From: an uncultured archaeon
Lineage (GTDB): Archaea; Asgardarchaeota; Lokiarchaeia; Sigyniarchaeales; SOKP01
Direction: 5' to 3'
DNA length: 64,000 nucleotides
Assembly: GCA_964508365.1 (NCBI GenBank)
Contig: CAZDTP010000003.1
Location: forward strand, 56,092 to 120,091
Of the stretch, positions 59,319 to 63,045 are shown piece after piece. The notes beneath the pieces were generated by a model, which did no database searches, was not told the origin of the DNA, and worked only from the letters and a program-made list of their open reading frames with translations. Position numbers and translations under genes: made by a program. The first letter of the stretch is position 1. Each line of letters begins with the position of its first letter.

Positions 59319-59966
59319 TTATTTTCCAAATGCTTCTTTAATAACTTTTACACCTGAAACAGCATCGTCAGCAAATAAGTCTGCTCCCAGCTTCCGAGCA
59401 AGTTCCATGTTCAAAGGAGCTCCACCAACTATTAGTTTTACAGAATCCCTTAGTCCAGCTGCGATTAAAGCTTCATGAACCGCTTTAATTTGTTCAACGG
59501 TCATTGTTAATAATGAACTCAACGCAATAATATCTGCTCCTGTTTCTTTTACTTTATCTACTATAATATTTTCATCAACATCCATTCCTAAGTCGATTAA
59601 TTCAAAACCACTGCTTAATAAGAGTGAGCCTAAGATGTTTTTACCAATATCATGATTATCACCCTTTACAGTAGCAATGATTATTTTTATCTTATCTTGG
59701 GTTTGATCCGATGCCGCTAAAGCTGGTTGGAGCACTTTAAACGCTTCTTTCATCGTCTCACCGGCTAGTACGAGTTCTGTAAGATAATATTCCTTTTCTT
59801 CGTATCTACGCCCTACTTCATCCATTCCTTTAGTTAAAGCATTTAGAATGTCAAAAGGCTCCTTTCCATCTACTTCTAACGCTTCCTTTACCGCAGCCTC
59901 AATATCATCTACTTCTAATTCAATTATTAGTTCTGTTAATTTCTCAAAATCCATAATAAAATCCAT
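59319..59966 (-). CDS. Methyltransferase-cognate corrinoid protein
   Basis: GDNHDIGKN, SSLLT, VGGAP; N-terminal cap L..GM..VG.RY. Confidence 0.93.
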   Translation of the reverse strand: MDFIMDFEKLTELIIELEVDDIEAAVKEALEVDGKEPFDILNALTKGMDEVGRRYEEKEYYLTELVLAGETMKEAFKVLQPALAASDQTQDKIKIIIATVKGDNHDIGKNILGSLLLSSGFELIDLGMDVDENIIVDKVKETGADIIALSSLLTMTVEQIKAVHEALIAAGLRDSVKLIVGGAPLNMELARKLGADLFADDAVSGVKVIKEAFGK

Positions 59967-60060
59967 GTTTTGTTACTATTTAATATTAAAATATCTCACT
60001 TAAGATAAATATTTTTTATATTTAAAATGGACATTAATGTATATAGGGGTCCAAAAAAGG

Positions 60061-60188
60061 AGTTAGAGAGGAGTCGGAAACTGAACCTCAAGATGAGGTA
60101 AGATTTTGGGATAAAATTTAGTTCCGTACGTTACCATTTAAATTAGGAAATTAGGGGATATTTTTATTTACGACTTCCTCTCTAAACT
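60061..60188. ncRNA. Candidate structured RNA of ~130 nt with paired ends and an internal multi-way junction
   Basis: AGTTAGAGAGGAGTCG (60061-76) pairs with CGACTTCCTCTCTAAACT (60171-88); CGGAAACT/AGTTCCG; ACCTCA/TGAGGT; AGATTTT/AAAATTT. Flanked on the minus strand by a TATA box and an oligo-T tract. Confidence 0.55.
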
Positions 60189-60205
60189 ACATTGTAACAC
60201 GGCAC

Positions 60206-60219
60206 TATATAAACTTTTG
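60206..60219 (-). promoter_or_regulatory. BRE-TATA-like element (CAAAAG-TTTATATA)
   Basis: Archaeal promoter consensus, spaced so that transcription would start near 60183-60188. Confidence 0.45.
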
Positions 60220-60338
60220 TCTAATCAGTCATTTCAATCAATATTAAGCTTAAGCGTAAAATGATGGCATAATATTTTAAATAACTAAGAATTATAAAAA
60301 AAAAAGAAGTTAAAGAAGATTTACTTTAAGGATTAAAA

Positions 60339-61109
60339 ATGGAGAATGAATTTATCGAAAAGGCTCCAGAGATAGAGGACATCGCGGTTTTAAGGGAGAT
60401 TAAAGAAGGAAATATTTTAATCTTGGCTAATAATTTAGTTAAGGATTATGAAATTGGCGATTTTATAGTGAGAGCAGTAGATGATCTCTCTATAAGAATT
60501 AAAGAATCTGCATTTGTTATTATTAAAGGACCATCAGGAGCAGGAAAAACAACCTTATTAAATTTAATAGGGGGTTTGGATACTCCAAATAGCGGTTCAA
60601 TATATTTTGATGGAGTCAAGATTACTAACTTAAAAGAAGAATCCCTCGCTACCTTTAGGTTAATAAATACAGGATTCATCTTTCAAAACTATAATCTTAT
60701 AAGTACTCTTACTGCTGAAGAGAACATAATGTTTCCTATGAAACTAGCTGGAATGAGTTTAAAAGAGCAACGAGAAAGAGCGTTAAATCTCTTAAAAAAT
60801 GTAGGTTTAGGGGACAGAAGAGAACACCTACCTTTCCAGCTATCTGCTGGTGAACAGCAGAGGGTTGCTATAGCAAGAGCTTTAGCAAACGATCCCCCGA
60901 TTATTATTGCAGATGAACCGACAGCAAATTTAGACAAAACAACGAGTTTATTTATAAGAGATCTATTTAACGATATGAAGCAAGAGGTTAAAACTATTAT
61001 TATTGCAACTCACGATGAATACTTAATAAAACTCGCAAACCGCGTGATAACTTTTGAAGACGGTAAAATTGTAGATGAACAACTAGTTAATTCGCAAGTA
61101 AAAAATTAA
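60339..61109 (+). CDS. ABC transporter ATP-binding protein (LolD/MacB-like)
   Basis: GPSGAGKT, LSAGEQQRVAIARA, ADEPT, ATH. Confidence 0.93.
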   Translation: MENEFIEKAPEIEDIAVLREIKEGNILILANNLVKDYEIGDFIVRAVDDLSIRIKESAFVIIKGPSGAGKTTLLNLIGGLDTPNSGSIYFDGVKITNLKEESLATFRLINTGFIFQNYNLISTLTAEENIMFPMKLAGMSLKEQRERALNLLKNVGLGDRREHLPFQLSAGEQQRVAIARALANDPPIIIADEPTANLDKTTSLFIRDLFNDMKQEVKTIIIATHDEYLIKLANRVITFEDGKIVDEQLVNSQVKN

Positions 61110-61194
61110 AAAAAAAAGCGGTGCCGCTAAAATTTCACTTGATTTTGCTCTAAAAGATTTTTATAGGAAACGTGGTACCACCTTCTCTTATACA

Positions 61195-63045
61195 ATGATG
61201 ATCGTTTTAGTTATAGCGTTCACTGTATTTTTAATTAATTTCACCTCATCGATAGGTTTTAACAGCTTTATAACGTATGATTATGAAAATTCATTCTTTT
61301 TTTCAGGCGGAATTAGCATTGTCTTTATTGATTTCACTAATTTAGTGCTTATCCTTATCTTAATCTTAGCTTTTGTGGTCGTTATTATCGTTACCAGTAC
61401 TTTGATTATAACCAAAAAACGGGATATTGCGATCATGAAGGCTTTAGGTTCGATCCCACAGAAATTATATGGTTTTTATTTAACAGAAGTTTATGTGGTT
61501 TTTCTTATTGGTTTTGTCATTGGAGCTATAATGGGATTTATCTCTTATATAATTTTCTTCTTTATAGCTTTATTTTTAGGAGTTATAGCGACCTTTCAAG
61601 TTGATTTTTTTTATACTCCAATTCTGTTTATATCGTGTTTTGCTGGGATTTTTCTATTTACTGGAGTCGTGTTAAGGAAAATAGGAACACAAAACACTAT
61701 AAAACTGTTTTCGAGAGATATTCCCTCGAACTACGACGCTTCAAAAAAATTAACAACAATTCCAAAGTGGTTAAGTTTAATCGGGTATAATTTTAAAATT
61801 TCAGTCCTAAATACACTTAGAAGGAGGGGAGAATTTAAGAGATATTTAGTCGTATTTACAATTATTTCTCTTATAATTTTTACTTTAGGATTAGGTAGTA
61901 CTGTTCTAACGAATTCTTCTCAAGAATGGATTAAAAAGTCGCAAGGAACAAATATAATTGCAATTGGTCATAAAGATGTCCTTCAAAACTACACATTAAT
62001 GTATGGTATGTTCTCTAATCCAGATATACTCGTAACTCAAAATGATATTGACTTTCTTAACCCAAACTACCTCTTTAATCTCTCCAAAGTTGAAGAATTA
62101 ACAAATTATACTGAAATTGAAAAAATTGACCAGCGATTAATCAATTTTTTTAACGTTACTGAGTTAGATGGATATCATCTTGTTGAAGATGGAGGTTCTT
62201 TTGCAATTGGTCAAGATAGAAAGGCTATTATCCCCATAATAGGGTTTAATGCGAGAGAAATTATACAAGATTTTGAGATTGAAGGTGAATACATTGTTGA
62301 CGAAGATAATGTAAATATGATGATAGGGGACGGATTAGGATATAATCTATTTGATTATCCATTAGATCAAAGCATGCGAATTGAAGAATTAGGAACGGGT
62401 CATCCATTTCACATTTCTGCTGTCGTTATAGATAGTTTTTACAGTGGTTTTGCGGGATATGTAGATTTAGGTGTTATGCAAGGAGATCTGAATTTTAGTT
62501 CGAATGATATTAATCTTCTATTGCTTAAGATACAATCTAGTGATTATAGTGATGTAATTGGAGATATTGAGTTGATTGTTCAAGGGAATCTAGGAGAAAA
62601 CTTTAGTTTTATCAATTTAAATCAAACTTTTGAGAATAATTATACTTATCTTGAACTCCTAACTTTATATCCTTCGCTCATCATTATTATGATGGCTATA
62701 ATTTCGATTTTGGCACTGTATAACTATCAAAAAGGGAATATTATAGAAAAAGCTAAAGATTTTTTGATTATGAGAGCTGTTGGGTCCAAATATAAATCTA
62801 TTAAGAAAATTCTCTTTTTAGAAGCGTTTTACATGATCATCCCGTCCTTGCTCCTAAGTATGGGAATTGGAATGCTAATTAACTCTTTAATATTATTCGA
62901 CCGCGTATATCTACCCAACATATCGTTACCAATTATTATCGTAGGATTATTATTTATAGCTTTCTTATCTTTTAATTATATAAGTTTATTTCCGATTCTT
63001 TCAAAGATAAAAAAATTTACTATCAAAGATTTCGATATATGGTAA
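61195..63045 (+). CDS. FtsX-like ABC permease (two permease modules); N-terminus may extend upstream
   Basis: KKRDIAIMKALG and KAKDFLIMRAVG motifs, many TM segments. Confidence 0.82.
   Translation: MMIVLVIAFTVFLINFTSSIGFNSFITYDYENSFFFSGGISIVFIDFTNLVLILILILAFVVVIIVTSTLIITKKRDIAIMKALGSIPQKLYGFYLTEVYVVFLIGFVIGAIMGFISYIIFFFIALFLGVIATFQVDFFYTPILFISCFAGIFLFTGVVLRKIGTQNTIKLFSRDIPSNYDASKKLTTIPKWLSLIGYNFKISVLNTLRRRGEFKRYLVVFTIISLIIFTLGLGSTVLTNSSQEWIKKSQGTNIIAIGHKDVLQNYTLMYGMFSNPDILVTQNDIDFLNPNYLFNLSKVEELTNYTEIEKIDQRLINFFNVTELDGYHLVEDGGSFAIGQDRKAIIPIIGFNAREIIQDFEIEGEYIVDEDNVNMMIGDGLGYNLFDYPLDQSMRIEELGTGHPFHISAVVIDSFYSGFAGYVDLGVMQGDLNFSSNDINLLLLKIQSSDYSDVIGDIELIVQGNLGENFSFINLNQTFENNYTYLELLTLYPSLIIIMMAIISILALYNYQKGNIIEKAKDFLIMRAVGSKYKSIKKILFLEAFYMIIPSLLLSMGIGMLINSLILFDRVYLPNISLPIIIVGLLFIAFLSFNYISLFPILSKIKKFTIKDFDIW

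Follow-up and report, generated by a model that had tools for sequence, protein, structure and literature searches.

The spacer between a corrinoid protein gene and a divergent ABC transporter operon in this Lokiarchaeial genome very probably carries a genuine stand-alone gene for a structured small RNA (sRNA), predicted to be transcribed from the minus strand. For its function, we give an even chance to a trans-acting antisense sRNA that would mask the ribosome-binding sites in the leaders of MFS transporter mRNAs. The features of the locus are collected in Table 1, with positions counted in the window, i.e., the whole stretch of 64,000 nucleotides of DNA that was analyzed.

Table 1. Features of the predicted sRNA gene and its flanks (positions in the window; RNA letters in the sense of the minus strand)
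Feature	Position	Strand	Basis or remark
Predicted sRNA, 131 nt, 5' UAGAGAGGAAGUCG ... CUCUAACUCCUUUUU 3'	60054..60184	-	Covariance model 103.7 bits, E about 1e-18
BRE/TATA promoter, minus-sense CAAAAG-TTTATATA	60206..60219	-	TATA end 22 nt before first model base 60184
P1 5' arm UUAGAGAGGA[A]GUCG, bulged A	60171..60185	-	Partner 60063-60076
P1 3' arm CGACUCCUCUCUAA	60063..60076	-	Partner 60171-60185
Core 'seed' AUAUCCCCUAAUUUCCUA, two 8-nt repeats, AUCCCCUA and AUUUCCUA	60144..60161	-	Exact in 57/60 aligned homologues
Near-invariant block AUGGUAAC	60130..60137	-	Invariant or near-invariant columns in alignments A1 and A2
Third C-rich, U-rich block UUUUAUCCCAAA, directly before P2	60105..60116	-	Sequence conservation
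P2 hairpin ACCUC-AUCUU-GAGGU	60085..60099	-	6/6 pairs change on both sides
Oligo-U terminator, UUUUUU after CUCC	60053..60058	-	T-run of 5-8 in nearly all homologues
Putative separate TATA box of the corrinoid gene, AAATATTTA	60006..60014	-	Genus-level conservation
Corrinoid (B12-binding) protein gene	59319..59966	-	Pfam B12-binding and B12-binding_2
Divergent operon, ABC ATPase and FtsX-type permease	60339..63045	+	Pfam ABC_tran, FtsX

Fold, strand and distribution of the RNA

A structured element at 60045-60220 had been noticed in the first-pass annotation of this DNA, and this observation is confirmed. The terminal helix with single-nucleotide bulges that it described is present as P1 (TTAGAGAGGA-GTCG with CGACT[T]CCTCTCTAA in the letters of the window), as is the tandem CCTAATTT repeat, found at 60142-60157 in the plus-strand reading. 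The minus-strand BRE-TATA and the U-rich CTCCTTTTTT following the element (minus strand, 60053-60062) were also seen correctly, and both turned out to be conserved across homologues. Of the two hairpins reported in the interior, the ACCTC/GAGGT one (P2) holds, whereas the 'loosely paired' second one, on the plus strand, shows no covariation. The folding against shuffled controls that had been proposed as a check gives -28.3 kcal/mol for the 131-nt minus-strand RNA versus -18.2 ± 3.1 kcal/mol in 200 shuffles (z = -3.25), none of which folds as well.

Homologues of the element were detected by BLAST in 21 of 24 genomes of the same genus, at 73-97% identity. Their alignment displays invariant blocks with variable hairpin insertions between them at fixed sites, a signature of structured RNA. 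RNAalifold recovered just seven pairs from the raw MAFFT alignment because P1 and P2 were misaligned in it, and this alignment was replaced by a realignment of 60 homologues to a covariance model built with hand-set P1 and P2. In this model-fitted alignment, which favors the structure and on which all covariation counts rest, 86.9% of the cells are paired versus 76.0 ± 0.6% in shuffles, and changes on both sides occur at 17 of 21 pairs (160 cells versus 58.6 expected, a value reached in 0 of 500 shuffles). When the partners were slid by 1-3 columns as a control, pairing fell to 41-69% (maximum 68.7%). P1a is 96% paired, all 9 pairs of P1b show both-sided changes, and the P2 stems are wholly different among lineages (ACCUC/GAGGU, AUCUUA/UAAGAU, CCAAAAC/GUUUUGG, GCAGG/CCUGC). 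Covariation thus counted supports the predicted P1 and P2 helices.

The orientation of the element, left unresolved at first, is settled by family-wide evidence. On the minus strand, AAAGTTTAWATA precedes the purine-rich 5' arm (AGAGGGAAG) by 22-24 nt in all of about 57 distinct homologues, and a run of U directly follows the pyrimidine-rich 3' arm in nearly all of them, U-tracts being an archaeal termination signal according to PMC8716108. Minus-strand G-U pairs outnumber A-C pairs (125 vs. 49 overall, 45 vs. 10 in P1a, 55 vs. 6 in P2), and P1 is more stable on this strand in 39 of 57 sequences. The promoter and U-tract at fixed distances, the G-U excess and the stability of P1 together designate the minus strand as the RNA strand. 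The plus strand had been favored because of the G-U pairs of one hairpin, and this is correct for P2 in the one sequence of the window, where the P2 region folds at -13.2 kcal/mol on the plus strand vs. -9.0 on the minus strand (the plus strand of 60050-60200 has a fold z of -3.32), but the asymmetry across the family points to the minus strand.

The predicted transcript would begin some 22 nt downstream of the BRE/TATA, at the first base of the 5' arm, and would end at the U-tract directly after the 3' arm, so that the two ends of the RNA would pair into the bulged closing helix P1. Enclosed by P1 would be a largely unpaired A/U-rich stretch of ~70 nt with invariant C-rich blocks, together with P2. 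The conserved BRE/TATA and U-tract, and the fact that the unit moves as a block in inversions (see below), are those of a predicted independent transcription unit. A coding function was rejected, as neither the frame nor the length of a 24-codon ORF that begins at an invariant AUG is conserved. The spacer between TATA box and RNA (60185-60205) and its equivalents in homologues contain lineage-specific palindrome-like sequences, e.g., GCCATGGT/TACCATGGCAA in close relatives. These are possible operator sites and, as such, would hint at regulation of the RNA gene itself.

Across 151 genomes sampled from the phylum, a covariance-model scan located the RNA in 18 of the 25 genomes of the window's GTDB family, with a single match per genome, and in none of 125 genomes from 28 other families. 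By genus, it is present in 10/12 genomes of g1, 4/4 of g11, 1/3 of g12, 1/1 of g14 and 2/2 of g15, and in 0/3 of g13, a genus with a variant motif, CGGAAATTAGGGGAT, that cannot be recognized as homologous to the RNA. The homologue and covariation check suggested at the outset thus returned a structure conserved in relatives, at one copy per genome. The exact 18-mer TAGGAAATTAGGGGATAT, searched in 185,579 species genomes, occurs on 69 contigs, nearly all of them titled Promethearchaeota, i.e., Loki-type Asgard archaea; this search biased the homologue sample toward intact cores. Five loci (L095 on DATKTW010000107.1, L032, L036, L037 and L047) are recorded under foreign titles, those of locus-bearing contigs being 'Candidatus Nanopelagicaceae bacterium', Hodarchaeota, Odinarchaeota, Hermodarchaeota and Thorarchaeota. 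Several of these contigs are near-identical to loci of the window's genus, which suggests mis-binned or mislabelled records.

The conserved core and the leaders of MFS transporter genes

The core is predicted to be the most exposed portion of the RNA, with a mean unpaired probability of 0.69 versus 0.44 for the remainder of the molecule. A few scattered unrelated contigs set aside, exact matches to the 18-mer outside the RNA gene were found at seven loci, all in the opposite sense and 2-4 nt ahead of an MFS start codon; both the RNA gene and such an exact site are present in three genomes. The proteins encoded there correspond to Pfam MFS_1 and MFS_3 and form a multi-copy family, often in tandem arrays. 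The leader motif, UAGGAAAUUAGGGGAUAU (UAGGAAAU as named for genus g11), contains a G-rich Shine-Dalgarno-like element, and its duplex with the seed has a predicted energy of -28.9 kcal/mol. With up to three mismatches, the motif is present in 15 of 40 fetched MFS upstream regions, ending 2-9 nt before the start codon. Its pairwise identity reaches 87%, whereas the 40 nt ahead of it are 46% identical and the opening 60 nt of the coding sequence 59%. A family-wide pattern scan (central 15-mer, at most one mismatch) retrieved the RNA genes and 16 MFS leaders in 11 genomes; the other matches were scattered and mostly within coding sequence, and a reversed-pattern control matched about as often.

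We propose a trans interaction in which the exposed core AUAUCCCCUAAUUUCCUA would pair with UAGGAAAUUAGGGGAUAU of MFS_1/MFS_3 mRNA leaders, and in which this pairing would mask the ribosome-binding site and thereby control the translation or the stability of the transporters. By its mode of action, the RNA would then belong to the class of archaeal trans-encoded sRNAs.

Three to four MFS_1/MFS_3 paralogues stand in tandem at G211:C357:7054-12268, G176:C243:37890-41819, G209:C1:150084-153936 and G007:C115:1349-5274. The leader motif is found at the ribosome-binding site of 2-3 paralogues in each of the first three arrays and of none in the fourth, and the proteins of these arrays are just 45-60% identical despite the common leader motif. 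At several MFS loci the upstream neighbor encodes a helical-repeat protein of 313 aa that matches an Apolipoprotein-like Pfam entry weakly. The in-frame TGA codons that had been flagged in MFS paralogues proved to be just the true stop codon.

In the window's own genome, no site adjoins the start codon of the MFS orthologue (contig 15, 56884-58161). The complement lies at MFS translation-initiation regions in sister genomes, and here we found just AAGGGAATTAGAGGATAT, 168 nt upstream of the start codon, with three mismatches, one of them wobble-compatible. The duplex predicted for this site has an energy of -21.3 kcal/mol, and an equally good alignment to the element was obtained with just 3 of 500 shuffled versions of the spacer; beyond about 25 nt, the similarity of the spacer to the element is not significant. 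No enrichment of the seed complement was detected near the start codons of this genome, where the Shine-Dalgarno consensus is GGAGGUGA, nor were complements of AUGGUAAC and of the other invariant blocks enriched over reversed controls. A duplex scan of its 5' regions returned just meaningless long A/U duplexes. With this degenerate, distal site, the RNA may work in this genome through weaker pairing, through other targets or through its other invariant blocks.

The core is not contiguous everywhere. It is split exactly between AUCCCCUA and AUUUCCUA by a covarying hairpin of 27-30 nt in at least eight genomes (G002, G103, G159, G088, G209, G211, G217, G220), and a 1-nt insertion separates the two repeats in two further genomes; the anti-Shine-Dalgarno half AUAUCCCCUAA is intact in all cases. 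Three of the split-core genomes, G211, G217 and G220, nevertheless have exact, contiguous MFS motifs, so that contiguous 18-bp pairing is not what is conserved, and pairing between seed and MFS leader would there need a three-way junction. The same three genomes refute the idea that the target motif decays once the seed is split. A search for a compensating 1-nt insertion in the targets of the seeds with a 1-nt insertion gave just chance matches inside coding sequences. As to the inserted hairpins themselves, they always end in G(A/U)GGA or GGGGA before (A)AUUUCCUA (L104, L105, L106, L180-L183, L015). Inserts that end in GAGGAA give rise to AGGAAAUUUCCU, a self-complementary stretch with the potential for a small hairpin or for dimerization of the RNA. 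In L018, L031 and L015, direct pairing links the insert to one of the core halves.

Further observations run counter to the antisense reading. The RNA is present in genera in which the MFS family was found rarely or not at all: this family was detected in 16/16 genomes of g1 and 15/15 of g11 and rarely elsewhere (1/10 in g15, 0/4 in g12), and g15 has the RNA in 2/2 genomes versus MFS in 1/10. In addition, AUGGUAAC and the U-rich tract before P2 have no candidate partner. A protein-binding scaffold or sponge is a rather unlikely reading, in which the CUAAWUU and UCCC blocks and the U-rich stretch would bind, e.g., an Sm-like protein (SmAP) and the complementarity to MFS leaders would be secondary. 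In its favor, the RNA persists where the MFS family is missing, and its invariant nucleotides total about 38, far above the requirement of a seed, in blocks with optional hairpins between them. CUAAWUU occurs three times within these blocks, UCCC blocks are repeated as well, and the U-rich tract (AAUUUUAU, or AUUUUUUG in genus g11) adjoins a stem. Yet, the partner protein of a scaffold is purely hypothetical, the sequence of the U-rich block differs among genera (UUUUAUCCCAAA is kept in the window's genus and in several genera, with another U-rich sequence in part of the family), and the conserved exact complement of the core at MFS ribosome-binding sites would be left unexplained. A broader form of this idea, to which we assign a low probability, takes the core of about 38 nt (AAUAUCCCCUAA, AUUUCCUAAUUAAA and AUGGUAACUAA, plus the stem-adjoining U-rich tract) as an Asgard-specific RNP platform or as a ligand- or protein-sensing RNA, bound for instance by an Sm-like protein, with the optional hairpins as peripheral domains and the MFS pairing as one output.

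The persistence of the MFS motif in genomes with a split RNA core would be accounted for if the 18-mer, with its two direct TAGGRRAT repeats, were a DNA operator through which a factor co-regulates the MFS and RNA genes, the function of the RNA being separate. The motif is indeed a tandem direct repeat, double-stranded DNA holds it irrespective of the transcribed strand, and at MFS loci TATA-like boxes lie 10-25 nt ahead of it, which places the motif where archaeal repressors frequently bind. The motif may thus be partly untranscribed, which leaves room for a function at the DNA level. These TATA calls are unreliable at 32% G+C, however, and an insert of about 30 bp between the half-sites, found in the RNA genes with split cores, would disrupt an operator, whereas it would be neutral for an RNA in which the hairpin brings the halves of the core together. 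An operator located within a transcribed RNA gene, at +24 to +41, would be unusual, and dimeric DNA binders do not typically have a repeat period of 8 bp. We therefore regard an operator as improbable, and retain the masking of MFS ribosome-binding sites by the RNA as the preferred reading.

Genomic setting of the RNA gene

At every locus with readable flanks, the RNA sits in the spacer that separates the divergent corrinoid/TusA and ABC-FtsX operons. Downstream of the corrinoid gene follow genes for TusA, a class-V aminotransferase, NifU and a CoA-disulfide-reductase/rhodanese/TusA fusion; loci that lack the corrinoid gene have TusA directly after the RNA. In 53 of 58 loci, the RNA is directed toward the corrinoid or TusA gene, at a distance of 90-130 nt. 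A cis-acting, riboswitch-like leader or attenuator of this sulfur-trafficking operon, in which P1 and the U-tract would form a conditional terminator, would fit this direct upstream and codirectional position, and the layout of a closing helix followed by a U-tract, with invariant junction nucleotides and variable peripheral hairpins, resembles that of an aptamer. It is the five remaining loci, from three lineages (L023/L025/L026, L031 and L053), that make a leader quite unlikely: there, the whole unit of promoter, RNA and terminator is inverted and faces the ABC gene. A conserved promoter-like box (AAATATTTA in the window, conserved within the genus) also lies between the U-tract of the RNA and the corrinoid start codon. 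The inversions, together with this separate box, argue for a self-contained gene and not a 5' leader. The interior of about 70 nt of mostly unpaired A/U-rich RNA likewise speaks against a leader, as does the lack of any riboswitch match in Rfam.

This last point extends to all known families. Rfam 15 gave no match at the gathering score over the whole window and none at E ≤ 10 over 59900-60400, and ARAGORN detected no tRNA or tmRNA, in line with the by-eye judgment of the first-pass annotation that the element does not match tRNA, 5S, C/D box, hammerhead or cobalamin-riboswitch consensus. The Rfam families covered include riboswitches, 5S, tRNA, SRP, RNase P, C/D, H/ACA, Y RNA, ribozymes and RsaE. 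As judged from its sequence, the RNA belongs to no described RNA family. Of the two roles proposed at that time, novel sRNA or regulatory leader, a conserved, covarying and Rfam-unmatched RNA has emerged, for which a stand-alone sRNA is favored over a leader.

Several local features of the flanking genes deserve mention. The start of the corrinoid gene (59946-59966) contains a tandem 12-nt duplication, with AAAATCCAT occurring twice, 12 nt apart, so that the gene has two ATGs in frame (MDFIMDFE...). Because orthologues begin at the equivalent of the second ATG (ATGGATTTTGAGAAATTAACAG), the true start probably lies 12 nt downstream of the annotated one. In L013 (1393-1420) and L014, 12 nt of the RNA 5' arm, GAAGTCAGAAAT, are repeated just before the corrinoid AUG and overlap it, so that the 3' arm of the RNA could pair with the corrinoid start region. 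As general mechanisms, this pairing and a 'three-strand switch' were rejected: the copy of the 5' arm is limited to the L013/L014 lineage and absent from the window, which also counts against a leader.

On the other side of the spacer, a 20-nt direct repeat links 60053-60072 (AAAAAAGGAGTTAGAGAGGA) and 60300-60319 (AAAAAAGAAGTTAAAGAAGA), and through it the 5' UTR of the ABC ATPase gene complements the sRNA's 3' arm and tail at 17 of 20 positions. Pairing between the sRNA tail and this 5' UTR was rejected as a family trait, since significant complementarity is confined to this species and its nearest relative (z = 5.7 and 4.8), the mean z over 25 loci being 0.64.

The element lies between genes in A/T-rich DNA and its terminal inverted repeats measure 14-16 bp, which could also recall a MITE (mobile inverted-repeat element) or a chance fold, readings that are almost certainly wrong and that we consider refuted by copy number and covariation: the element has a single full-length copy in the 4.07-Mb genome (31.8% G+C) and one per genome across the family, at a syntenic locus, with covarying helices and an invariant core.

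Comparison with known systems

The locus thus offers a family-wide, covarying RNA gene that is absent from Rfam, whose ends can be mapped and for which the ribosome-binding leaders of MFS exporters are a concrete and conserved candidate target. Its modular arrangement of invariant single-stranded blocks and optional hairpins suggests more than a simple antisense seed. The gene gives directly testable access to post-transcriptional regulation in the lineage of archaea most closely related to eukaryotes; no archaeal regulatory sRNA from Asgard archaea was found in the literature searched. The covariance model obtained from the homologue alignment could serve to annotate this RNA gene in Lokiarchaeial genomes.

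With cobalamin and other riboswitches, the RNA shares a position upstream of a gene for a B12-binding protein, a closing helix and conserved junction nucleotides. It differs from them in having its own terminator, in being inverted in some lineages and matching no Rfam family, and in its architecture, which comprises no compact multi-helix core.

C-rich sRNAs with multiple seeds are known from bacteria, such as RsaE/RoxS and the RNAIII type of S. aureus. Like these, the Lokiarchaeial RNA has a terminal stem followed by a U-tail and unpaired C-rich motifs (UCCCC, UUCC, UCCC) that could pair with G-rich Shine-Dalgarno sequences. The resemblance is one of possible working mode and not of membership, as the RNAs are not homologous (Rfam, E ≤ 10) and the seed complement is not generally enriched at host start codons, whose Shine-Dalgarno sequence is the one given above.

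The closest parallels in the proposed mode of action come from Methanosarcina mazei, whose sRNA162, sRNA154 and sRNA41 are trans-encoded RNAs of 100-250 nt with stable stems and exposed pairing regions, which pair with the translation-initiation regions of mRNAs and mask their ribosome-binding sites (PMC3510493; PMC5867862). One of them, sRNA154, is conserved within one genus and acts via distinct loops or domains (PMC3510493; PMC5867862). The likeness lies in the masking of ribosome-binding sites, which for the Lokiarchaeial RNA is proposed on sequence grounds. The two systems have no relationship in sequence or in Rfam, and the present RNA stems from another lineage, the Lokiarchaeia within the Asgard archaea; its 18-nt tandem-repeat complement is often split by a hairpin, and its predicted targets are MFS transporters.
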